A stretch of DNA of 64,000 nt from Bacteroidales bacterium (lineage in GTDB: Bacteria; Bacteroidota; Bacteroidia; Bacteroidales; M50B96). Location of the stretch: the NCBI GenBank assembly GCA_021740905.1, contig JAIOYV010000012.1:25786-89785 (forward strand). The letters run 5' to 3'. This document shows, piece after piece, positions 268 to 60,701 of the stretch. Numbering within the stretch: the first letter of the stretch is position 1; every line of letters starts with the position of its first letter. The position numbers were made by a program, and so were the translations under genes. A model generated the notes under the pieces. That model saw only the letters and a list, made by a program, of their open reading frames with translations. It did not search any database and had not been told where the DNA came from.

Positions 268-2493
268 ATGAATAAAATTATCTTAGTTATTGCATTGACT
301 GCCATATCAATGTTTGCCATTGCGCAACAAAAATACATCGAGGGAAATATCGAGGGTCTCAATCCATCGGAAAAAAACGGTAAACCCATCTCACTTGTCC
401 AGGCCAATGTGTATTGGGCAGGCACAACCATCGGGGCTGTAAGTAACGAAAAAGGTCGCTTTAAAATAGCCCTTCCCGAAGGCCACAACCCGAAACTTGT
501 GATCAGCTACATTGGTTATAAAAATGATACGATTACAATTTCGGGCGATATGGAAAACCTGGAAATAATCCTCGAAACAAGCAAAGAAATTGACGAGGTA
601 ACCGTGTACGACCGACAGAAGGGCAGTTATATCTCGAAGATCGAAACCATACAAACCGAAACGGTAACCTCGGCCGGGTTACAAAAACTGCCCTGTTGCA
701 ACCTGGCCGAAAGCTTCGAAAACACAGCCACTGTCGACGTAGGTTATGCTGATGCTGTTAGTGGTGCAAAACAAATAATGATGTTGGGCCTGGCCGGGAA
801 ATACAGCCAAATCATAGTAGAGAAAAAACCAGCTGTACGTGGGTTGGCCTCCAACTTTGGCTTGAACTACATACCCGGCACCTGGATGGAATCGATTCAG
901 GTCTCGAAGGGTACAGCCTCGGTGATCGACGGATATGAATCAGTCACGGGCCAGATAAATGTGGAGTTCAAAAAACCCGATACAGCCGAACCTTTACATG
1001 TAAACCTGTATGGCAACCACTTGGGCCGGATGGAAGCAAACATCACTTCGGCACAAAAAATAAATGACCACTGGAGCACTATGTTGCTGTTTAGTGGCGG
1101 GCATAATGATATGAAACACGACCTGAACGACGATGGCTTCATCGACCTGCCATTAAGCTCACAGGTGCATGTGATGAACCGATGGAAATACGACAGCAAG
1201 AAAAACTACCGGGGGCAGTTTGGCTTTACCTTTTTGAACGAAGACCGCACCGGTGGACAAATGTCAATGGATGGCGACAACCAGACTTTTGCTCCCAACC
1301 TGTACAGGATCGGCATCAAAACAAAACGATACGATGTATATGGGAAAAACGGGTTCACGCTGCCCCATAATTCTAATCAAAGCATTGGGATGATAGCTTC
1401 GGCATCGAGGCACGAAGTGGAGTCGTTTTATGGCAATCGAGAATACGCAGGCGAGCAAACAAACTTTTATTTCAACGCCATTTTCCGTACCCGTTTATGG
1501 ACTTGCGAGCAAAACCTAAATGCAGGATTTAGTTTTATGTATGATGATTACGATGAGCGTTTTGAAGGTGTAGATTACCTGCGCGAAGAAAAGGTCCCCG
1601 GAATTTTTGCAGAGTACAATTACACCACCAGCCAATTAAATTTTATTGCAGGGGCACGTATGGATCATCATAATTTGTATGGAAATTTCTTTACGCCCCG
1701 GATGCACATAAAATATAACCTCAGCGACGAAACCATCATTCGTGGATCGCTTGGAAAGGGCTACAAGGTGGCCAATATTTTTAGCGAGAACCCTGGCCTA
1801 TTTGCCAGTTCGAGGAATATTGTCCTACTCGAAAAGCTGGACATCGAAGAAGCCTGGAACATGGGGGTGAACGTAAGCCATGATATCTATTATGGTGATC
1901 GGGAAGCAATGTTGAGCATCGATTTCTACCGCACACAATTTATCAATCAGGTGGTGGTTGATATGGACCACGACCTGCACTCGGTGTATTTTTACAACCT
2001 CGATGGAAAATCATTCTCCAATAGTTTTCAGGCAGAAATCAGCACCGAGCCATTCGATCGTTTCGACCTAACCGCAGCCATACGGTACAACGACGTTAAA
2101 GTGACTTATGAAGAAAAACTAATGGAAAAGCCTTTTGTCAACAATTTCAAAGCTTTGCTCAGCATGTCGTATGCCACCAATCACAACAAGTGGATGTTCG
2201 ATGTAAACCTACAATATAATGGTAAGGGTCGTTTGCCAGAGGTTTTGAATGAAGTGCCAGGGCTTGAATACACCGATTACTCGCCCGGCTTTTTTATGTT
2301 GCAAGCCCAGGTCACCAAGAGGATTGGAAATTTTTCGGTGTATGCCGGCGGCGAAAACCTGACAGGCTATGTGCAGGACAACCCTATTATCGGAGCCAAC
2401 GACCCCTTCGGCCCCAACTTCGATGCCTCGATGGTTTGGGGTCCGATTATCGGCAGGCGGTTTTTTGTAGGTGTAAGATATACCCTTGAGTAG
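268..2493 (+). CDS. TonB-dependent receptor, probably metal-related, with N-terminal carboxypeptidase-like regulatory domain
   Basis: Signal peptide; LVISYIGY N-domain; plug with CCNLAESFE and ESIQVSKG; barrel ending GRRFFVGVRYTLE. Confidence 0.9.
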   Translation: MNKIILVIALTAISMFAIAQQKYIEGNIEGLNPSEKNGKPISLVQANVYWAGTTIGAVSNEKGRFKIALPEGHNPKLVISYIGYKNDTITISGDMENLEIILETSKEIDEVTVYDRQKGSYISKIETIQTETVTSAGLQKLPCCNLAESFENTATVDVGYADAVSGAKQIMMLGLAGKYSQIIVEKKPAVRGLASNFGLNYIPGTWMESIQVSKGTASVIDGYESVTGQINVEFKKPDTAEPLHVNLYGNHLGRMEANITSAQKINDHWSTMLLFSGGHNDMKHDLNDDGFIDLPLSSQVHVMNRWKYDSKKNYRGQFGFTFLNEDRTGGQMSMDGDNQTFAPNLYRIGIKTKRYDVYGKNGFTLPHNSNQSIGMIASASRHEVESFYGNREYAGEQTNFYFNAIFRTRLWTCEQNLNAGFSFMYDDYDERFEGVDYLREEKVPGIFAEYNYTTSQLNFIAGARMDHHNLYGNFFTPRMHIKYNLSDETIIRGSLGKGYKVANIFSENPGLFASSRNIVLLEKLDIEEAWNMGVNVSHDIYYGDREAMLSIDFYRTQFINQVVVDMDHDLHSVYFYNLDGKSFSNSFQAEISTEPFDRFDLTAAIRYNDVKVTYEEKLMEKPFVNNFKALLSMSYATNHNKWMFDVNLQYNGKGRLPEVLNEVPGLEYTDYSPGFFMLQAQVTKRIGNFSVYAGGENLTGYVQDNPIIGANDPFGPNFDASMVWGPIIGRRFFVGVRYTLE

Positions 2494-2613
2494 ATAATTA
2501 GGTTGAGTAAGGAATTGAGCAATTAGCTTGAAGAACCGGTGGTCATTCCTGATTTCTACAAATATTTCGAGGCTCTGCCACAAATGATAAAGGTGAAGAG
2601 CACCGAAATACGT

Positions 2614-3252
2614 TTATTGCAAACTAATTTTCCCCGTTTCAGTTTTCTTATCCGAAACGAGATGATAAAAATACATGCCTTTGGGCATAAGCGAAAAGTC
2701 AAACTGATGGGTATCAAGCTGGGTGTCCAGTTCATCAGAATAAACAAGTTTGCCATTCATTGAAAATAAATCAAATCGAAGAGTGGAAACCTGAAAATCT
2801 GTGTCCAAATTAAGGAAGCCCTTGCAGGGATTTGGATAAACTGAGTGGTCCACCGTTTCATTAAGATCGTCAATCGAGAAGGGATCGGGGTTCAATACAA
2901 ATGCATCGGACATGCTTAGGAAACCATCCATTTCGCTAAACACATTCAAATCGTAAGAGCCTAAAATATGATAGGATGAAAAGGTAAACTCACATAATAT
3001 CAGTGTGTCGTTTATTACGATGGTATAATTGGGAACTATTGAAGCAGCTTCACCTTGCTTTAACCATACTTGAGTGGGATTGGGAGTTGCAATAGTTGTT
3101 GTGCCCTGATTAAAATGGGTCCCCTGCCCACTTATGGTTACATTTAAAGTATGATTCTGATAGCCAACAGGTGGAGAAATAGTAGTAATAGTTTGGGATG
3201 AAAGACCAAAGTAAAAAACAAGCAAGCCAACAATAAGTACAATATGTTTCAT
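2614..3252 (-). CDS. Small T9SS type A sorting-domain protein with Ig/IPT-like domain
   Basis: Signal peptide MKHIVLIV (start 3252 preferred); C-terminal VYPNP...GMYFY...GKISLQ. Confidence 0.8.
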   Translation of the reverse strand: MKHIVLIVGLLVFYFGLSSQTITTISPPVGYQNHTLNVTISGQGTHFNQGTTTIATPNPTQVWLKQGEAASIVPNYTIVINDTLILCEFTFSSYHILGSYDLNVFSEMDGFLSMSDAFVLNPDPFSIDDLNETVDHSVYPNPCKGFLNLDTDFQVSTLRFDLFSMNGKLVYSDELDTQLDTHQFDFSLMPKGMYFYHLVSDKKTETGKISLQ

Positions 3253-3299
3253 GATTTTAGTTTTTGTGTTCAGCACAAAGCTAAGAGATTTACACGGAA

Positions 3300-4136
3300 T
3301 CAGAAATTATATCTTAAAGCCACACCCTGCCCCTGTTGGGCTGCCGATATTTTTACGCCCCAATTGTTTCGGTTCACCACCAGTTTCCCGATGGCCCAGC
3401 CAAAGGCAGCGGCGGCAAACACATCGCTCGCCCAGTGTTTGTTGTCGTGAATGCGAGACAGCCCAACCAACCCGGCGATGGTATAAGAAACAATGGGCAC
3501 GATTGGCTTATCCTTATATTCTTGAGCAAATACCGATGCAGCTGCCCATGCCGCCATGGTGTGCCCCGACACAAACGACCGGTAGGATTTGGTCGTTGGG
3601 CCTTCCCATTGCCAATGATCTGGCTCTGGTCCTTGATGGGGCCTATGCCGACCAAAGCTGACTTTGGTCACAAAAATAAAAAGGCTTGAAACGGCCCATG
3701 CCCGGGTCGCCTCCATAGCCACCATTTTGGTTTTTTCGTTTTTTGTAAGCAAGCCGGTAAAATAGACCCCGGCCAAGGAATATACCGTATAGTTTCTCAA
3801 TAGGTTGCCTGTTCCCCATGGATCGAGGAAATGCTCGGAAAAACGATTGCTAAAATCGGTTCGTTGCTCTTGCGACCATTGCTGAATCTGTTCATCCACG
3901 GTAAAAAGCGCGAAGGTTCCTAAAGCCACACCCGAAAAAGTCAACCATTGTTTTGTTTGCCAATGAGCCGGGGCGAGGCATACATCGCGGATATCTTTTC
4001 CGTAGGAATAAATATATTGCTTGGTGATGGATGCCTTTTTAGAATCGAAAGCAGGAAGGATTTGGGCATCGAGAGAAGAGCCAAGAAGAATGAAAAATAC
4101 TGAGCAAGCAAGTATGAAATATTTATGATAAACCAT
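3300..4136 (-). CDS. PAP2 family phosphatase
   Basis: Motifs K-x4-GRHRP, SFVSGHT, SRIHDNKHWASDV; start probably MVYHK at 4136. Confidence 0.9.
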   Translation of the reverse strand: MVYHKYFILACSVFFILLGSSLDAQILPAFDSKKASITKQYIYSYGKDIRDVCLAPAHWQTKQWLTFSGVALGTFALFTVDEQIQQWSQEQRTDFSNRFSEHFLDPWGTGNLLRNYTVYSLAGVYFTGLLTKNEKTKMVAMEATRAWAVSSLFIFVTKVSFGRHRPHQGPEPDHWQWEGPTTKSYRSFVSGHTMAAWAAASVFAQEYKDKPIVPIVSYTIAGLVGLSRIHDNKHWASDVFAAAAFGWAIGKLVVNRNNWGVKISAAQQGQGVALRYNF

Positions 4137-4137
4137 T

Positions 4138-4500
4138 TTATAAAAATGTATCGTTTTCAGCTTCAATAATCTTCTTAATTTGAATAATGTTCTCTGGGAT
4201 ATTGATGGTCGAAATATCCCAAATCATGTCATAATCTATTCCAAAATACTCATGAGAAACAAGATTTCTTAAGCCATACATTTTCCTCCATGGAAGATTT
4301 GGGTATTTATCCTTTATTACATCAGGAAGATTTTTTGATGCCTCTCCAATTATTTCAAAATTTCTGACGACGGCATCTACGACCATAAAGCTTTGTTTGA
4401 ATTCTGCCGAATTTTTAGTCCCAACATATTCTACAATGCGCAGTATCGCGGTATGAATATCATTCAAATAAATGAGGTAATTTCTATCTGTATCTTTCAT
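4138..4500 (-). CDS. hepT: HEPN (DUF86/HepT) RNase toxin
   Basis: DAVVRNFEIIGEA and RNLVSHEYF (R-x4-H); overlaps the MNT gene by 4 nt. Confidence 0.9.
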   Translation of the reverse strand: MKDTDRNYLIYLNDIHTAILRIVEYVGTKNSAEFKQSFMVVDAVVRNFEIIGEASKNLPDVIKDKYPNLPWRKMYGLRNLVSHEYFGIDYDMIWDISTINIPENIIQIKKIIEAENDTFL

Positions 4501-4790
4501 ACGTAGCGTGTTTGTTGAAGGATTGAATCTCTTAGCTCATTTCTAAGTGCTTTTATAGAAACCAAATCAACTTTTAAATCGAGTTCCTTCTCTAACAAAT
4601 CATGAAGATCAAAAAAATCCCAACCTAATGGCTTGCGAAATTCAACCAGAATGTCAATATCCGATTTTTCATCCTGGTCGTTTCTTGCGTAAGAACCAAA
4701 ATAACCAATCCTGTCCACATAAAATTTATTGGAAAGGATGGGTTTTAAATCTCTTAATCTGGTTTCTATTTCAGTTTGTGTCATCATCAT
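4497..4790 (-). CDS. mntA: Minimal nucleotidyltransferase antitoxin
   Basis: FGSYARND...SDIDILV (GS-x10-DxD) and KVDLV. Confidence 0.9.
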   Translation of the reverse strand: MMMTQTEIETRLRDLKPILSNKFYVDRIGYFGSYARNDQDEKSDIDILVEFRKPLGWDFFDLHDLLEKELDLKVDLVSIKALRNELRDSILQQTRYV

Positions 4791-4888
4791 ACAAATATAA
4801 GGATTTCAAAGCTAATTGAATCAACCCAAAAATAGAGAACTACATCTTGAATCCAACCCACTCATTACATATTCATCATAATAATTAA

Positions 4889-5677
4889 TCATTTCCTCTT
4901 CGCTTCTTCCCAATATTTATCCATCTCCGCCAAGCTCATGTCATGCAACGATTTTCCTTGTTGGATTGTTTTTTCTTCAAGATAATTAAATCGCTTGATA
5001 AATTTCCGGTTGGTCCGCTCCAGGGCATTCTCGGGGTTTATGCCGTACAAACGTGCTGCGTTGATCAGCGAAAAAAACAGGTCGCCAAATTCGGCTTCGG
5101 TTTTGTCGAAATCTTGTTGCTCGATTTCATGTTTCAGTTCGTTCAATTCTTCGTTTACTTTGTCCCACACCTGCGAGCGTTCTTCCCAATCGAACCCGAC
5201 GCCACGGGCTTTGTCCTGGATGCGGTTGGCTTTTACCAGTGCCGGCAAGGATTCAGGGACACCGCCTAACACCGTATTTTTCGTGCCCTTGCCGTTTTTT
5301 TCTTTTAGTTTGATGGCTTCCCAATTATCGGCCACCTCCCGGGCATCGGCCACTTTCACTCCGCCGTAAATGTGTGGGTGGCGGAACACCAGTTTATCGC
5401 ACAAGGCATTAGTGACATCGGCAATGTCAAATGCCTCCTTCTCCTCCCCTATTTTTGCATAGAAAACAATGTGGAGAAGAATGTCGCCCAGTTCTTTTTT
5501 TATTTCCTGAAGGTCATCTTTAAGGATGGCATCGGCCAGTTCGTACACTTCCTCCAGGGTAAGGGTGCGAAGGCTTTCGAGGGTTTGTGCTTTGTCCCAT
5601 GGGCATTGCGCACGCAACTCGTCCATGATGGTAAGCAGCCGCTCGAAGGCTTTTAGTTTGTCTTGTATGTTGTTCAT
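4889..5677 (-). CDS. mazG: Nucleoside triphosphate pyrophosphohydrolase MazG
   Basis: CPWDKAQT, EEVYEL, ELGDILL, RHPHIY, EFGDLFF; start trimmed to MNNIQ at 5677. Confidence 0.95.
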   Translation of the reverse strand: MNNIQDKLKAFERLLTIMDELRAQCPWDKAQTLESLRTLTLEEVYELADAILKDDLQEIKKELGDILLHIVFYAKIGEEKEAFDIADVTNALCDKLVFRHPHIYGGVKVADAREVADNWEAIKLKEKNGKGTKNTVLGGVPESLPALVKANRIQDKARGVGFDWEERSQVWDKVNEELNELKHEIEQQDFDKTEAEFGDLFFSLINAARLYGINPENALERTNRKFIKRFNYLEEKTIQQGKSLHDMSLAEMDKYWEEAKRK

Positions 5678-5680
5678 GTC

Positions 5681-5816
5681 AGAGAGTTCAGAGTTCAAAT
5701 AGTTCAGAGTACAAAATTCAAGCTCTTCCGCTTGACTCGTTTCAAATCTCCAGTTCAAATTTCTTCAAACACAGACCTCAAAACTTTCCAACTCAGAACT
5801 TTCCAACTCAGAACTT
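5681..5816. repeat. Imperfect inverted array of AGTTC-based 7/8-mers between divergent mazG and phoH
   Basis: Left arm agagttcagagttcaaatagttcagagt; right arm (aactttccaactcag)x2+aactt at 5782-5816; an exact 20-nt reverse-complement copy lies at 46891-46910. Confidence 0.75.
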
Positions 5817-5853
5817 ATTTCTTATTTTGTCCCCGTAAAAGTAAAAAGAATAA

Positions 5854-6822
5854 TTGCAATCAATGTCTGAAAGAATAATCTATTTCGACGGGATCGACCC
5901 GGTTGATATCTATGGTGTTAACAATGCCAAGCTGGAGCGGCTTAAAAACTTTTTTTCGAAGCTGAAAATTGTTGCACGGGGAAACGAGCTAAAAGCCATT
6001 GGGGAAGAGTCGGAGTTGGAATTGTTTGGGCGCAAAATCCAGATGCTGATCGATCATTTTCACCAATATAATATTATCACCAACAACGACTTTGAGCGGA
6101 TAATTTTGGTTGAAGACAGTGATGCCCCTGTTGGCAATGGCAAACGCGAAGAGCCTTTGCTGTTTGGCAACAATGGAAAACTGATCCGTGCCCGAACTCC
6201 GAATCAGTTAAAGATGGTGGAAGATTCCCAGAAAAACGACCTCCTTTTTGCCATCGGCCCTGCCGGGACCGGAAAAACATATACGGCCATTGCCCTCGCA
6301 GTGCGTGCTTTGAAAAACCGCGAGGTGAAAAAGATTGTGTTGAGCCGACCCGCCGTTGAAGCTGGCGAAAACCTTGGTTTCCTGCCCGGCGACTTAAAAG
6401 AGAAAATCGATCCCTACCTGATTCCTCTTTACGATGCCCTCGACGACATGATCCCATCCAAAAAACTAAAGGATATGATGGAGGAAGGCATCATCCAGAT
6501 TGCCCCTCTTGCATTTATGCGGGGCCGCACGCTCGAAAATGCATTTGTGATCTTGGATGAAGCCCAGAACGCCACACTCAATCAATTTAAAATGTTTGTG
6601 ACCCGAATGGGGATGAACGCCAAATTCATCGTAACTGGTGATATAACCCAAATCGACTTACCCAAAAAAAGTCAGTCGGGATTATTGCAGGCACTCACTA
6701 TTTTGGAAGGGATAAAAGGCATTTCTGTTATCCGCTTCAACGAGCAGGACATTGTGCGGCATCCTTTGGTGAAAAAGATTGTGGCGGCTTATGATAAGCT
6801 TTATAAGGACAAAGTTGAGTAA
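5854..6822 (+). CDS. phoH: PhoH family ATPase
   Basis: GPAGTGKT, RPAVEAGENLGFLPG, FMRGRT, DEAQN, GDITQID. Confidence 0.95.
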   Translation: MQSMSERIIYFDGIDPVDIYGVNNAKLERLKNFFSKLKIVARGNELKAIGEESELELFGRKIQMLIDHFHQYNIITNNDFERIILVEDSDAPVGNGKREEPLLFGNNGKLIRARTPNQLKMVEDSQKNDLLFAIGPAGTGKTYTAIALAVRALKNREVKKIVLSRPAVEAGENLGFLPGDLKEKIDPYLIPLYDALDDMIPSKKLKDMMEEGIIQIAPLAFMRGRTLENAFVILDEAQNATLNQFKMFVTRMGMNAKFIVTGDITQIDLPKKSQSGLLQALTILEGIKGISVIRFNEQDIVRHPLVKKIVAAYDKLYKDKVE

Positions 6823-6950
6823 GGAATTGGGAAATTAAGGAGAATGAGGCATAGATAGAAAAGTAGACATGCAAGGCTTTCGTCTCAGCCAGTTTTGGAA
6901 AAAAGGAATTAGGTAATTGTAGTTGAAAAAATAGGAGAATAAAGAATTAA
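6820..6950 (+). repeat. RRGGAATT-type 8-mer repeats starting at the phoH stop codon
   Basis: taaggaattgggaaattaaggagaatgagg and later aaggaattaggtaatt, aaagaatt. Confidence 0.6.
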
Positions 6951-7010
6951 GTGGATTTATTGTATTTTTGGAATCAGATAATTTAGTTTGCCATTAATTA
7001 AATTGCAATT

Positions 7011-8240
7011 ATGACCGGGATTACCTTATTAGATGTATTTATTGGCTTGACATTCTTGTATTTACTATTTAGTTTGTTTGCCACTATTATTTTAGAGCTT
7101 ATCAATAATATTCTGAGGCTTCGGGCGCAGAATCTGGCTTTCACCCTAAAAAGGATGATGCTTGATGAGGTTAACCCCAAGATTAGATTTATTGACAAGA
7201 TCAAGAATAAACTGTTTGGGACTTTTGGCTTTTTATTCGGGACTAAAAATGAAAATCTTTTCAAGGCTTTTATAAATCAACCAACCATCAAATATTTGAG
7301 CAACGGTGGACTTGTCAACAAACCTTCCTACTTATCACCGACCGACTTTTCCAAAGCACTGATAGATTCGCTTAAGGATAGTGCTCCGGACGAAGCCACG
7401 AAATTAGAGAAGATTAAAACCGGCATCAGCAAATTGTTCCCAGAAGGTTCTGAAACAAAAAAACATATCCTCTCGCTTCTCGACGACGCTGAAAATGATT
7501 TGGAGAGGTTTAAAGTCTTGCTTGAGAACTGGTTCGAAAGTACAATGGAAAGGGCTATTGGGTGGTACAAAAGACGAATCCAGGTTATTTTACTGGCCTT
7601 AGGAATGATCATAGCTTTTAGCTTAAATTTAGACACAATAAAAATCGCCGGAAAACTTTCAAAAGATAAAAATGCGCGAGAGCAGATGGTTAACATGTCG
7701 ATTGCCTATATGGAAGCCAATAAGGACATCATTGTCAAAAATATGGAAATCAATCCTTCCAGCACATCTCAGCATGATTCTATTACAAAAGCAAAAATCG
7801 ACACTTTGTTACAGGTTAAAAAACAAGTTGAGAATGATATTGCAAACGCATCTAAAATAATTGATGCAGGATGGCCCGATGAAAAAGAGTTTACACCAAG
7901 TTGGTCGGCTGATACCTCGGAAGCAAATCGCAAGCTGTTTTTTATGGATAAGGTCGAAATAGCTTTGGCTAAAAAAGACACATTAGTGGGGGTTGAATAT
8001 CCGGCAAATATAGACAAGGCTGACTTCAAGAAATTTATCCTGGGAAAAGAATATAAGAAAGTCTATTATAGGAGTAGCTTTAAGTGGTGGACCTGGATTC
8101 ATCATTTCTGGGGGTATTTGCTTACCGCTCTGGCCATTTCGGTTGGTGCCCCATTTTGGTTCGATTTGCTAAACAAACTTGTGAAGTTACGTGGGTCGGT
8201 TGCACAAAGCACAACTTCGACGGAAGGAAAGAGGAATTAA
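7011..8240 (+). CDS. Conserved hypothetical membrane protein (accessory)
   Basis: 409 aa with several TM segments and conserved-looking blocks PSYLS, WFESTMER..GWYKRR, GAPFWFDLLNKL; AT-richer than its neighbours. Confidence 0.8.
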   Translation: MTGITLLDVFIGLTFLYLLFSLFATIILELINNILRLRAQNLAFTLKRMMLDEVNPKIRFIDKIKNKLFGTFGFLFGTKNENLFKAFINQPTIKYLSNGGLVNKPSYLSPTDFSKALIDSLKDSAPDEATKLEKIKTGISKLFPEGSETKKHILSLLDDAENDLERFKVLLENWFESTMERAIGWYKRRIQVILLALGMIIAFSLNLDTIKIAGKLSKDKNAREQMVNMSIAYMEANKDIIVKNMEINPSSTSQHDSITKAKIDTLLQVKKQVENDIANASKIIDAGWPDEKEFTPSWSADTSEANRKLFFMDKVEIALAKKDTLVGVEYPANIDKADFKKFILGKEYKKVYYRSSFKWWTWIHHFWGYLLTALAISVGAPFWFDLLNKLVKLRGSVAQSTTSTEGKRN

Positions 8241-8323
8241 GGAAATGAGGAATTAGGGAAACAAGGAATTACTTAATTATTCACTCAACTTAATTACATA
8301 TTTTCTCAATTACATAATTCACT
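8231..8323. repeat. Inverted 8-mer array left of the four-helix-bundle gene
   Basis: gaggaatt-aaggaaat-gaggaatt-agggaaac-aaggaatt (8231-8270), then the complementary-type arm aattacat-attttctc-aattacat-aattcact. Confidence 0.85.
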
Positions 8324-8333
8324 AAAAAGAGAT

Positions 8334-8696
8334 ATGAAAGCAACATTTAAGACATTGGAAGCATGGAAGAAGGGCAGAGAGTTGCAAAAAAGGATTTCGA
8401 AGCTTACAAAATCATTTCCACCAGAAGATAAATATAAACTTACCGATCAAATAATAAGGTCATCCCGATCGGTAACCGCAAACATCGCCGAAGGGTATGG
8501 TCGTTTTCATTATCAGGGACATGCCCAGTTTTGCAGGACTGCAAGAGGATCACTTTTCGAAACAATTGACCATCTTACTGTCGCACAGGATGAAGAATAC
8601 ATTGACGAAGCTCAGTTTGAAAACCTTAGGTCTGAGGTTCTGGAAGTAGTAAAAATACTTAATGGTTACATAAAATATCTATTAGATCAAAAATAG
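8334..8696 (+). CDS. Four helix bundle protein (23S rRNA IVP / Avd-like family)
   Basis: FKTLEAWKK, FPPEDKYKLTDQIIRSSRSVTANIAEGYGR, ARGSLFE, LNGYIKYL. Confidence 0.92.
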   Translation: MKATFKTLEAWKKGRELQKRISKLTKSFPPEDKYKLTDQIIRSSRSVTANIAEGYGRFHYQGHAQFCRTARGSLFETIDHLTVAQDEEYIDEAQFENLRSEVLEVVKILNGYIKYLLDQK

Positions 8697-8771
8697 GAAA
8701 TTAGGAAATTGAGGAATTTTGATAATACCTATAAACCCTAATTACCTAATTGCACAATTACTTAATTACTA
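8695..8771. repeat. Inverted 8-mer array right of the four-helix-bundle gene
   Basis: aggaaatt-aggaaatt-gaggaatt starting inside the stop codon; aattacct-aattgcac-aattactt-aattacta ending just before the purC ATG. Confidence 0.85.
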
Positions 8772-8777
8772 AATAAA

Positions 8778-9719
8778 ATGAACGCAATTACAGAAACAAA
8801 TTTTAAATTTCCGGGTGTAAAGAACATATATAAAGGCAAAGTGCGAGATGTGTACGCCATGGAAAATGGCTTGATGGTGATGGTGGTATCCGACCGGATT
8901 TCGGCTTTCGATGTGGTATTGCCAAAGGGAATCCCTTACAAAGGGCAGGTGTTGAACCAGATTGCAGAGAAATTTCTTGATGCAACTTCTGACATAGTCC
9001 CAAACTGGAAAATCGCCTCGCCCGACCCGATGGTGACAGCCGGTCATTATTGCGAGCCTTTTGCTATTGAGATGATCATCCGGGGATTTCTTACAGGCAG
9101 CTCATGGCGGTCGTACAAAAATGGTTCGCGCATGATTTGTGGTGTGCCAATTCCCGAAGGTATGCAAGAGCACCAAGCGTTTGGTGAACCAATTATTACA
9201 CCAACCACAAAAGCTATGGAAGGTCACGACGAAGATATTTCGCGAGAAGAAATCCTAAAGCAGGGTATTGTTTCCGAAGAGGATTATGTGTTACTCGAAA
9301 AATACACCCGCCATCTTTTCCAGCGTGGTTGCGAGATAGCCGACAAGATGGGCCTTATTCTGGTAGACACAAAATATGAATTCGGAAAAAAAGATGGCCA
9401 GATTTACTTGATCGACGAAATCCACACACCGGATTCATCACGGTATTTTTACAAAGAAGGCTATGCCGACCGTTTCCTAAAGGGAGAAAACCAAAAGCAA
9501 CTGTCGAAAGAGTTTGTGCGCGAGTGGCTAATGGAAAATGGTTTCCAGGGCAAAGAAGGCCAGCAGGTTCCCAAAATGACAGATGAGTTTGTAAACCTGG
9601 TATCGGAACGCTACATCGAACTCTACGAAAACATTACCGGCGACAAATTCCAAAAAGCCGACATTTCGGATGTGGAGGCACGGATTGAAAAAAATGTGCT
9701 GGAGTTTTTGAAGGGGTAA
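8778..9719 (+). CDS. purC: SAICAR synthetase
   Basis: [44 protein letters not shown]. Confidence 0.97.
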
Positions 9720-58590: not shown

Positions 58591-59217
58591 TTATCTATTT
58601 GCATCCTCTGGAAGTCTACATAAATGAAATGATAATTTAAAAATAAATAAATAATAACCAAACAAATCCATTGATTCAATTCTATTGTCATGTATGTCTT
58701 CTTTGAGAAGGATTAACTCAGAATTTTCAATAATTGAAATATCATCCAAATATGCAACATACTCCACGCTGGTTTTGGTTGGTGGTAGATAAAATACATT
58801 CGAATATTGCTGGTTTTTGATTTTTGTTAAGATCTCGGCTGCATTTTCCACTTCCAGTTCATTCATACTTTCTATAAAAGCATTTAATGTGATGACTTTG
58901 GCTACAATTACTTTTTTGGGAATATTCCTTTTATGTGTTTCAAAAACATCACATGTATTTGATAATAACAAGGCATCAAAGTACTCCTTGTTATACATTT
59001 TTGTTTCCGAATTGAAAACTGGAAATCTTAATTCCTTAATTAAATCACCTTGTAAAAAATATGAATTAGAATTAGATAAATAAAACTCAGTATAAAACTT
59101 ATCATTTTCAGTATTCTGATGTATGAATTGTTTCAATCCCTCCCTTAACCTATTTTTCTTTTGTGGTGCTAATTCAGGGGGTAATAATCTATTTATTTCA
59201 TCTATCGAGAATTCCAT
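58591..59217 (-). CDS. Hypothetical protein, possibly MazF/PemK-like fold
   Basis: LQGDLI, LLLSNTCD, FYLP, YYLFIFKLSFH..R; the fold assignment is inference. Confidence 0.65.
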   Translation of the reverse strand: MEFSIDEINRLLPPELAPQKKNRLREGLKQFIHQNTENDKFYTEFYLSNSNSYFLQGDLIKELRFPVFNSETKMYNKEYFDALLLSNTCDVFETHKRNIPKKVIVAKVITLNAFIESMNELEVENAAEILTKIKNQQYSNVFYLPPTKTSVEYVAYLDDISIIENSELILLKEDIHDNRIESMDLFGYYLFIFKLSFHLCRLPEDANR

Positions 59218-59228
59218 AATAATATTGC

Positions 59229-59588
59229 CTAAAGCCGATTTTTCATTATAGGATGAGATTTTCCAGATTTTTTTATTGCCAATTCAAGTGCTTCCTTTGC
59301 AATACCATCAATAGGTATGCTTCCTTTGAATAATTCCTTCGATAAATAATGAATAGAAATATTATTATTATCAATTACAAAAAGTTGTTCCAGATGTTTA
59401 TTATGTGGAAACAGTAATAAGGATGAGTTTTGGGTAATCTTATATTGGTTTCCAGCTTCTGGAAATAAAAAGTAATTATTCGGGTCTGGAAATTCATATT
59501 CTTTACCTTTTGTACAATCCACCAATGTGATTGAAGGATTAAACTGATGGAGATTAATATCTGTACCTATATTCGCAGCAATTATCAT
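59229..59588 (-). CDS. Small hypothetical protein, candidate antitoxin
   Basis: 119 aa; its ATG overlaps the upstream stop (ATGA); 11 nt gap to the next gene. Confidence 0.6.
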   Translation of the reverse strand: MIIAANIGTDINLHQFNPSITLVDCTKGKEYEFPDPNNYFLFPEAGNQYKITQNSSLLLFPHNKHLEQLFVIDNNNISIHYLSKELFKGSIPIDGIAKEALELAIKKSGKSHPIMKNRL

Positions 59589-60337
59589 TTTATAAGATTT
59601 TTAAAATAAGGAGTGGTAATATTAATAAAAGCATTTTTTGCATTATGATGAGCATCGTTAGCTAATTCAGACCAATTAATTTCATGCTTTAATGTATTAA
59701 AAGCAATGCAATTACATTCCAGCAAAACCTTTTTAATTCTCTCTGGATTAATTACATTAAGAATGGTCTTTAGCTGCAACCTTTTATTTGGTGCAATTTG
59801 ATATGCACTTTGAAACATGTGAGAAACTTCATCACCTTCTCCAAAGTGATCCATGTCGGGAACAAATGTTAAATAATTTGATAGTTTTTTGTCGGCCTTA
59901 AGATCAAAATTATTAATATAGATCATTTGTGCATTGTCTAGTCCATTACCATATCCTAAATCAAAGTAACTTGTGATAATATTTGAAATGAATTCATTGG
60001 AAAAAACATCCCATCCTGGATAATTACCTATTGTGTGAAAAGAAATGTAATTGTTTGATATTAAGATGGCTCTATCTTCTTTGTTGTTTTTGAATACCAT
60101 TTGTGTTTCACCCTCAACCAAATCGGGATTCTTGGGTGCTTCGTTTGGTTTAAAATGGAAGCTTAATTGAATGGGCTTGATTTCATTTCGTTTAATGAAT
60201 CCTTTCTCTTTAATCAATTTATAAAATTCTGCATAGCTTGTCCAGTCCCAAGAATTCTTTGATGGGTCAAATCGAAAAGCACAAACAGCTTCAGTTATCT
60301 TATGATTTAAGTATTCCATAAAATGAATTTGATTCAA
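59585..60337 (-). CDS. TIGR04255 family protein
   Basis: ITEAVCAFRF, YPGW..F, MIYINNF, VLLECN, AHHNAKNAF...T match the family pattern as I recall it. Confidence 0.75.
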   Translation of the reverse strand: MNQIHFMEYLNHKITEAVCAFRFDPSKNSWDWTSYAEFYKLIKEKGFIKRNEIKPIQLSFHFKPNEAPKNPDLVEGETQMVFKNNKEDRAILISNNYISFHTIGNYPGWDVFSNEFISNIITSYFDLGYGNGLDNAQMIYINNFDLKADKKLSNYLTFVPDMDHFGEGDEVSHMFQSAYQIAPNKRLQLKTILNVINPERIKKVLLECNCIAFNTLKHEINWSELANDAHHNAKNAFINITTPYFKNLIK

Positions 60338-60414: not shown

Positions 60415-60474
60415 TCATCCGATTCTTATTAATAATTTTGTATCAAAATACTGTGTATCCAGAAATATTTTCAT
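60415..60474 (-). pseudogene. Truncated VapC (PIN) toxin
   Basis: ATG overlaps the antitoxin stop (ATGA); reads MKIFLDT (PIN strand 1 with the first Asp), then QYFDTKLLIRIG*. Confidence 0.7.
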
Positions 60475-60701
60475 AGCTCTGCTTTTCTTTCTTCAATTAT
60501 GGCATCTGACAATGAGCTTTTTAATTTTTTCGATTTCTCCCGTGCTTTTAAAAATGAGAAATCTTGTACTGAAAGTCTCTTAGGATCATCTTGCACTTCA
60601 TCCTCTAAAAAAGTCACAACCACTTTTCTTGGGCTTTTAAATTTTATCTTTTTTCCAAGGCGGACAATTCCATTTTCATACGTTCCGTTTACTGCAATCA
60701 T
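60471..60701 (-). CDS. AF2212/DUF104-like antitoxin
   Basis: MIAVNGTYENGIVRL...KVVVTFLE; C-terminal SLSDAIIEER. Confidence 0.75.
   Translation of the reverse strand: MIAVNGTYENGIVRLGKKIKFKSPRKVVVTFLEDEVQDDPKRLSVQDFSFLKAREKSKKLKSSLSDAIIEERKAEL

Follow-up and report, generated by a model that had tools for sequence, protein, structure and literature searches.

Three small, tightly coupled genes at positions 58591-60337 on the minus strand of a Bacteroidales genome are best read as a tripartite cassette of the toxin-antitoxin (TA) type, in which gene 3 would encode the toxin, gene 2 the antitoxin and gene 1, a member of family TIGR04255, an accessory component that does not depend on the toxin. 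The triad lies in a 64,000-nucleotide stretch of contig JAIOYV010000012.1 (assembly GCA_021740905.1), and this whole stretch is called the window below. On this reading, to which we give a probability of roughly 0.55, the triad is one class of a much larger family of TIGR04255-headed cassettes with swapped antitoxin-toxin pairs; the role of the cassette is probably anti-phage. The genes, and the island that bears them, are as follows (aa, amino acids).

59585-60337, minus strand: gene 1, TIGR04255 protein, putative accessory component; 250 aa from the TTG at 60337
59229-59588, minus strand: gene 2, orphan small protein, candidate antitoxin; 119 aa
58591-59217, minus strand: gene 3, phrog_4575, candidate toxin; 208 aa
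58451-60470, no strand: AT-rich island bearing the triad, between folB and a vapB-like gene; GC 0.289

Homologues of gene 1 align from the ATG at 60319, which is its probable true start and yields a protein of 244 aa. The stop of gene 1 and the start of gene 2 share four nucleotides (ATGA, 59585-59588) and a gap of 11 nt (59218-59228) separates the stop of gene 2 from the start of gene 3; the open reading frame (ORF) coordinates thus uphold the tight coupling of three minus-strand genes described in the first-pass annotation, an earlier reading of the same DNA. That annotation had also called the triad more AT-rich than folB and the helicase gene, which holds (GC 0.295 for 58591-60337 vs 0.445 and 0.426, and 0.414 for the whole window), and had quoted a 60-nt line of 18% GC, which was not reproduced, the lowest 60-nt lines having a GC of 0.217. 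Only 4 of 623 equal-sized sliding windows of the 64-kb stretch reach a GC as low as that of the triad, and these four are presumed to be the ones that overlap it. With its low-GC island, the triad is best read as a horizontally acquired cassette. Scans for promoters, terminators and repeats returned nothing above shuffled expectation, and no syntenic locus turned up in 30 relatives when the empty site was sought with the DNA upstream of the island. The sequencing runs on record are three DNA runs of one lake-water study, two of which may be the source, with no RNA run among them.

The candidate toxin and its partner gene

Gene 3 belongs to a family to which no function has been assigned: it matches phrog_4575 over almost its entire length (E 1.7e-36, 126.9 bits; residues 4-208 on profile positions 6-206 of 209), has no Pfam family and gives no match to the PemK family PF02452 at E<=1. 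A word-index search returned 126 relatives among 405 candidates, all named 'hypothetical', and an exhaustive profile search brought the family to 963 clusters (50% identity) at E<=1e-3. In the model predicted by AlphaFold2 (predicted local distance difference test score, pLDDT, of 83.5), residues ~52-203 adopt the MazF/CcdB fold, with a helical insertion at 111-134 and an N-terminal helical extension. The Protein Data Bank (PDB) rows listed by Foldseek for this model are all MazF-family proteins (TMt 0.64-0.69), and VIA, a structure search independent of Foldseek, gave four chains at Z>=8, namely three MazF and CcdB; its rows 1-11 are MazF/CcdB/Kid-type toxins and its rows 12-15 the type III toxins ToxN/AbiQ/CptN. 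The superposition on MazF 4mzm_A reaches Z 9.6 with a root-mean-square deviation (rmsd) of 3.2 and 109 of 115 residues aligned, and that on CcdB 1vub_A reaches Z 8.6 with 94 of 95 residues. Since both searches rank MazF-type toxins at the top, the first-pass guess of a MazF/PemK-type fold is borne out in the predicted model; in it, gene 3 belongs to the CcdB/MazF fold superfamily, with an SH3-like barrel and a C-terminal helix that superpose on most of the chain.

The invariant residues of the gene 3 family include Q56, D58, C89, D90, K101, Q136, N140, D158, H198 and R201. Catalysis by MazF depends on an Arg in the beta1-beta2 loop and a Thr or Ser after beta3, from which the invariant residues of gene 3 differ in kind. 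The gene 3 profile found no MazF among PDB sequences; its only matches there, to Rab3 GTPases (E 7e-4, through an NKCD-like stretch), are dismissed as spurious in view of the MazF-like predicted fold. Searches of the PDB with the single sequences of genes 1 and 3 gave nothing meaningful.

A scan for gene 3 loci, limited to one genome per species, yielded 49 loci (numbered with an L below), 42 of which hold a full-length or nearly full-length gene 3, the C-terminus being cut in two of them (L024 and L029). In all 42, a small co-directional ORF stands immediately upstream of gene 3; it is detected as gene 2 by an iterated hidden Markov model (HMM) in 35 loci and by position in the other seven (102-127 aa). 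Gene 1 is directly upstream in 32 of the 42, which therefore carry the whole triad, and is missing from the remaining ten; intergenic distances are mostly -8 to +12 nt. The three genes accordingly co-occur far beyond the window, as their proposal as one system had supposed. Going by record titles, the hosts belong mainly to the Bacteroidota (Cyclobacteriaceae, Raineyaceae, Hymenobacter, Pedobacter, Runella, Apibacter, Prevotella and others), joined by a cyanobacterium, a deltaproteobacterium, Methyloglobulus, Methylophaga and a Vicinamibacterales metagenome-assembled genome (MAG); in most loci the GC of the island lies under that of its flanks. One locus (L039) has a 295-aa gene in the slot of gene 1, in which TIGR04255 was not detectable. 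Another (L002), titled as a Bifidobacterium breve MAG, is a contig of 29-37% GC that bears a Bacteroidota-type triad at 60% identity; its place among the contigs of a high-GC actinobacterium is probably a binning error.

Neither Pfam nor NCBIfam, PHROGs or PADLOC has a family for gene 2, which retrieved only two relatives in the word-index search and had no usable match in the ESM Atlas; family searches detected no AbrB, ribbon-helix-helix (RHH) or other MazE/CcdA-like domain in it. When 37 positional homologues are aligned, the N-terminus proves variable and the C-terminus conserved over ~45 aa, and this division of the protein, together with its antitoxin-like behaviour in the comparative data, agrees with the first-pass view of gene 2 as a candidate antitoxin.

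In Saprospiraceae, genes 2 and 3 occur without gene 1 among unrelated housekeeping genes (thiolase, sugar-phosphate isomerase-like, esterase and allantoicase genes), and this stand-alone gene 2 has a different N-terminus and the same C-terminus. Two Raineyaceae-type MAGs (L013 and L011) share a common site, flanked by acyl-CoA dehydrogenase and heptosyltransferase genes; compared with L013, L011 has lost ~975 nt, which removes gene 1 entirely and gene 2 up to codon 66; a 66-aa ORF with the conserved C-terminus of gene 2 is left, and behind it gene 3 is intact. Decay of gene 3 is found in L026 (second copy), L046, L047 and L049, where gene 2 is intact and the core of gene 3 has been lost by differing internal deletions, that of L047 leaving an in-frame fusion of the N- and C-termini of gene 3. 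An intact gene 3 without the gene 2 C-terminus was seen in none of the 42 loci. Retention of gene 2 with loss of the gene 3 core in four loci, and never the reverse, is what a toxin and its antidote predict, and genes 2 and 3 thus behave in a manner that fits an antitoxin and a toxin, as far as comparison of sequences can tell. The pair also has the layout of a type II TA module: a small, adjacent and coupled gene, constant co-occurrence and the existence of stand-alone pairs.

TIGR04255 and the cassettes that it heads

Gene 1 is a full-length member of TIGR04255, as first annotated: it scores 66.1 bits against the NCBIfam model (cut-off 30; E 4.2e-18), its residues 10-249 aligning to model positions 3-251 of 252, and the genome search bore this out. 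It has no match in Pfam (E<=1), PHROGs or PADLOC, and the plasmid collection holds no match to it. Its AlphaFold2 model (30 homologues; pLDDT 90.1) consists of two beta-alpha-beta(n)-alpha repeats and is predicted to form a two-repeat saddle like that of the TATA-binding protein (TBP). TATA-binding proteins are the top Foldseek matches (E 2.6e-4, TMt 0.41-0.45), with TM-scores to TBP of 0.3-0.45 overall and an rmsd of ~12 A; the best VIA matches (Z 8.2-7.2) are an AdoMetDC-like N-domain, Med18/20, McsB and TBP. A BFVD fold search found weak TBP-like viral proteins only, and the ESM Atlas gave only unnamed or TIGR04255 clusters. SecB is absent from the fold rows listed by Foldseek and VIA, an absence that the search tool does not treat as evidence, and the sequence has no match to the SecB family in Pfam at E<=1. 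The near-invariant positions of gene 1 are mostly aromatic or in the core, with almost no conserved polar residue; because of this largely aromatic conservation, gene 1 is read as a binding protein and not as an enzyme. No longer, fused relative of gene 1 came out of a search for such proteins, which is weak evidence, and one surfaced in the genome survey: a 649-aa ORF (L058:273-2219, on contig C629 of genome G002) carries TIGR04255 at its C-terminus (residues 399-648), preceded by ~400 residues without a Pfam or NCBIfam match. This ORF, whose contig stops 131 nt later, may be a fusion form of TIGR04255.

The TIGR04255 HMM matches in 25 of 401 sampled Bacteroidota genomes (that of the window included), in 32 of 401 genomes of a second phylum, that of genome G430, which had been reached via the Methyloglobulus locus L038, and in none of 14 control genomes. 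A strict cassette rule, applied twice, accepted as the next ORF one of at least 70 aa whose start lies between -40 and +100 nt from the preceding stop. Of the 63 TIGR04255 loci in the two phylum samples, 54 are by this measure followed by two coupled co-directional genes; the nine that fail comprise two at a contig edge, one with a broken gene 1, five with larger nominal overlaps and one (L101) with no such ORFs. When the third genes of the 54 cassettes were clustered by phmmer at 1e-3, the largest cluster (15 of 54) proved to be a single unannotated family of small proteins (93-166 aa). Third genes of the gene 3 type number 13 and are paired with five different second-gene clusters, their share being inflated because three of the 13 loci, and the window itself, had been reached through gene 3. 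True PemK proteins (PF02452, E 1e-18 to 3e-12) occupy the third position in five cassettes, and another five have a third gene of ~270 aa with a 'QGA...SxxCD'-like motif; the rest are clusters of three and two and 11 singletons, which include DUF7689 and a weak HEPN match. The first-pass annotation had foreseen a variable toxin in the third position behind TIGR04255, and the third gene does vary, with PemK itself among its forms.

Three of these classes deserve a fuller description. In the largest (e.g. L053, L063, L067, L070, L090, L103, L106, L107, L117 and L118), the second gene encodes 156-208 aa with an 'NWDxYGA'-type motif and the third carries, close to its C-terminus, an 'H-[AGS]-x-I' motif; both lack a name in Pfam, NCBIfam and PADLOC, and the two may be an unknown antitoxin-toxin pair. 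In the ~270-aa class (L057, L099, L104, L109, L113), the second gene encodes 208-233 aa and the N-terminal 'QGA...[ST]xxCD' of the third resembles the 'QGD...SNTCD' of gene 3, a likeness of motif by which the longer protein may be a relative of the MazF-fold toxin. Four of the five second genes of this class have helix-turn-helix (HTH) family matches (HTH_3, and more weakly HTH_23), and the fifth has only a weak match to CENP-B_N; the HTH that some second genes carry is of the Xre type, as in many antitoxins. Two PemK-type cassettes from different phyla (L052:2855-3718 and L097:2801-3717) are followed by a gene with a weak match (E ~0.002) to the methylase-associated DUF1156, which hints at a conserved link to a methylase-based system.

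The presence of true PemK toxins in the same slot of these sister cassettes bears on whether gene 3 is a toxin at all. The three proteins might instead form a non-toxic complex in the service of mobile elements, engaged in anti-defence, superinfection exclusion by binding, or regulation, with the fold of gene 3 as a binding scaffold; relatives of gene 3 do occur in phages, no link between gene 3 and PemK appears at the level of sequence, and a shared fold by itself demonstrates no function. We consider this unlikely, as it sits poorly with the PemK-bearing cassettes, with the one-sided loss of gene 3 described above, and with the many invariant polar residues of gene 3, which are typical of an enzyme.

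In the tree of gene 1, toxins of the gene 3 type fall into three separate clades, and gene 1 is therefore not tied to one toxin; the tree did not show which of its two partner genes, second or third, gene 1 follows. That TIGR04255 is combined with many antitoxin-toxin pairs speaks for a toxin-independent role. A wider proposal, which we put forward tentatively, is that TIGR04255 could be a widespread, toxin-independent third component (a sensor or chaperone with a TBP-like saddle) that defines tripartite, module-swapping TA or abortive-infection systems, present in roughly 6-8% of the sampled genomes of two phyla and in temperate phages, with at least six recurrent third-gene families and eleven singletons, among them PemK, the MazF-fold family of the window and several that lack any annotation.

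Independence of the toxin would also suit a transcriptional regulator. Genes 2 and 3 would then be an ordinary type II pair and gene 1 a DNA-binding, TBP-like repressor of the operon, comparable to omega or PaaR: it is first in the operon, its best Foldseek matches are TATA-binding proteins, gene 2 has no detectable DNA-binding domain, and the pair of genes 2 and 3 exists without gene 1. The regulators of omega-epsilon-zeta and paaR-paaA-parE are small, of the RHH or HTH type, and bound to a single toxin family. Those systems are alike in that the third gene heads the operon and is not needed for neutralisation; they differ in that TIGR04255 is a TBP-like protein of 250 aa found with many toxin families. 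The low TM-scores to TBP, however, make for a loose resemblance that TBP-like folds with no DNA-binding role equal in score, and no significant operator repeat was found upstream of the triad, where the AT-rich background yields many chance repeats. One cassette class keeps TIGR04255 even though its second gene has an HTH domain of its own, and where gene 1 has been lost, the N-terminus of gene 2 is lost or replaced as well, an outcome not expected of a protein that only binds DNA; we regard a repressor as improbable. As for gene 2 being a two-headed antitoxin, its N-terminal part directed against gene 1 and its C-terminal part against gene 3, both of them toxins, the joint loss of gene 1 and the gene 2 N-terminus in L011 and the broken gene 1 beside intact partners in L002 and L066 would fit, but gene 1 has next to no conserved polar residues and no toxin-like fold match, its invariant positions being mostly aromatic or in the core, and no N-terminal domain common to the second genes could be detected across the cassette classes, so that this idea is very hard to sustain.

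Defence context, possible mechanism and known systems

The whole triad is present in two kinds of temperate Pseudomonas phage, Dobby and VW-6S. In Dobby (Peduoviridae, MK034952.1), it lies at 1090-2786, after the integrase gene and convergent with the adjoining portal gene; in VW-6S, it stands between the cI repressor and the integrase. The Dobby record (L082:1090-1854) annotates a 123-aa ORF (1483-1854) where the TIGR04255-like ORF has 254 aa from 1090, and the VW-6S record annotates a 46-aa 'integrase' at the place of the middle gene of the triad. Rousset et al. (PMC9122126) describe the P2-like phages of E. coli as having an anti-phage hotspot by cos, between gpA and the portal gene, and by analogy of position the Dobby locus may correspond to this hotspot.

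For the bacterial loci, the flanks of 28 triads were scanned with 128 of 136 flanking ORFs of at least 180 aa (eight were dropped). Strong and specific defence matches were found next to or around the triad in six of the 28 loci, listed here (R-M, restriction-modification).

L007: PDC-S03 directly downstream of the triad
L019: type IIG R-M enzyme directly upstream of the triad
L020: IetA and IetS upstream of the triad
L022: type I M and S subunits and PDC-S26
L029 (Hymenobacter MAG, 2229-9620): triad between the type I hsdR and hsdM/S genes of one R-M locus
L034: LmuB (Lamassu) 3.7 kb from the triad

The arrangement in L029 recalls PrrC, which sits within a type I R-M locus. The association of the triad with defence genes, counted without a matched background, is suggestive. 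In a Saprospiraceae MAG, a stand-alone pair of genes 2 and 3 is immediately followed by the gene of a 913-aa LRR-Roc-COR-TIR protein (L016:2400-5138).

Put together, these elements suggest the following mechanism. Gene 3 would be the toxin, a protein that diverges from others of the MazF/CcdB fold class and has invariant polar residues of its own; from its fold and its invariant Asp, Lys, His and Arg, it is most likely a metal-independent endoribonuclease, with a CcdB-like action as a possibility. Gene 2 would be the antitoxin, whose conserved C-terminal ~45 residues, to judge by comparative genomics, would neutralise gene 3. Gene 1 would be a non-enzymatic accessory with a TBP-like saddle, independent of the type of toxin, and, by analogy with toxin-antitoxin-chaperone (TAC) systems, would probably act via the variable N-terminus of gene 2, as a stabiliser of the antitoxin or as a sensor of a trigger such as a phage product. 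Infection might then release gene 3, with abortive infection or addiction as the outcome; of the whole scheme, this end is the most speculative. A co-folding of the three proteins in which gene 1 was the queried partner gave ipSAE values of 0.30 and 0.01 beside a mark of 0.32; obtained without controls, these values speak neither for nor against binding.

A number of observations weigh against this interpretation. Gene 3 does not reach any Pfam PemK score (PF02452), and hhalign gives a probability of only 1.8% between its alignment and that of the PemK-type third genes; the catalytic Arg and Thr of MazF could not be placed on its predicted model, and CcdB, a gyrase poison, scores within one Z unit of MazF against it. 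Family searches find no recognisable DNA-binding or antitoxin domain in gene 2. The fold matches of gene 1 are middling (best Z 8.2, TM 0.3-0.45), and they point to no function. The Saprospiraceae loci without gene 1 are mutually related and may represent a single event. In L002, a frameshifted gene 1 stands beside intact genes 2 and 3; barring an error in the MAG, this tells against strict chaperone addiction. Finally, 22 of the 28 scanned triad loci have no strong defence neighbour (none at all, or generic matches), and the locus of the window is itself outside any defence island.

Among known systems, the closest parallel is offered by TAC modules (HigBA-SecB of M. tuberculosis, HigBAC and CmdTAC of E. 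coli), which likewise have three genes and combine a conserved accessory with differing TA pairs. According to a preprint (bioRxiv 10.1101/2024.02.24.581848), a SecB-like chaperone holds the ChAD element of the antitoxin and recognises a phage protein, and the chaperone thereby doubles as the phage sensor, as two further papers also indicate (PMC5105189, PMC6377645). In TAC, loss of the accessory together with the antitoxin segment that it serves should leave an autonomous pair, and the natural variant L011 suggests the same for the cassette. The differences concern the accessory itself, which here is TIGR04255, predicted to be TBP-like and without a SecB match in Pfam; the gene order, which is accessory-antitoxin-toxin here whereas the accessory comes last in TAC; and the variable, possibly accessory-dependent part of the antitoxin, which is N-terminal here whereas ChAD is C-terminal. 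By this analogy, the cassette would work like a TAC or other tripartite TA system and yet fall outside the TAC family.

With MazEF, PemIK (Kid-Kis) and CcdAB, the triad shares the fold of gene 3 (Z 9.6-7.1 to MazF/Kid, 8.6 to CcdB), a small partner gene directly upstream in tight coupling, and sister cassettes with true PF02452 toxins; it differs in the ~208-aa length of gene 3, with its N-terminal helical extension, helical insertion and other invariant residues, and in a gene 2 without a detectable MazE/CcdA-like domain. GajC of type II Gabija is described (PMC13069673) as a MazF-like domain interrupted by helices and as the putative effector of a validated anti-phage system. On that description, it resembles gene 3 in its split MazF-like domain with a helical insertion, and it differs in having as partner the UvrD-type helicase GajB in place of TIGR04255 and a small protein. 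RnlA and LsoA show TBP-like modules at the N-terminus of a TA or anti-phage protein (VIA Z 5.4 for LsoA and 5.3 for the RnlA NRD vs gene 1); in these, however, the domains are fused to a HEPN toxin, and the matches to gene 1 span one repeat and lie within the range of noise.

As the first-pass annotation had supposed, no described system was found to account for the triad: genes 1-3 match no family of PADLOC-DB v2.0.0 at E<=1, a database that dates from 2023 and stops short of later systems, and the literature on tripartite, TBP-like or MazF-like systems yielded nothing that matches the cassette. The terms TIGR04255, CHP04255, DUF7689 and IPR026349 occur in no full-text paper found by a search that stopped short of subscription journals and bioRxiv supplements. 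What is new here would be the accessory family and the MazF-fold toxin family, within a kind of tripartite TA or abortive-infection module that is already known. If the interpretation is correct, TIGR04255, a curated family without a function, gains a role; a second kind of TA accessory, unrelated to SecB, takes its place beside the TAC chaperones; a new family of MazF-fold toxins is named, the 963 clusters mentioned above; and the same slots point to several more unannotated families of toxins and antitoxins. The cassettes are cheap to test because they are small (~1.8 kb), occur in phage and defence-island contexts and escape PADLOC, and they could supply new anti-phage systems as well as a new trigger-sensing module.

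The neighbouring vapB-like gene and putative vapC remnant

On the far side of gene 1, at the edge of the AT-rich island, two short ORFs lie outside the triad.

60471-60701, minus strand: VapB-like small protein, 76 aa, no Pfam match of its own
60415-60474, minus strand: 19-codon ORF similar to the N-terminal end of a PIN (VapC) toxin, broken off at the border of the AT-rich island

The stop of the 76-aa ORF overlaps the start of the 19-codon ORF by ATGA. The first-pass annotation had placed the triad directly behind a truncated vapC, which a paralogous locus of the same genome (L125) makes plausible: there, a small protein 38% identical to the 76-aa ORF (E 6e-9) precedes a PIN protein of 142 aa (PF01850, E 2.4e-9), and the 19-codon remnant, itself too short for any statistical test, resembles the N-terminus of this PIN protein. 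No 3' piece of vapC appeared when the L125 PIN protein was run by tblastn against the island. Most of a vapC gene seems to have given way to the island. The intact L125 pair (72 aa and the 142-aa PIN protein; G000:C4) has a further 74-aa paralogue in front of it.

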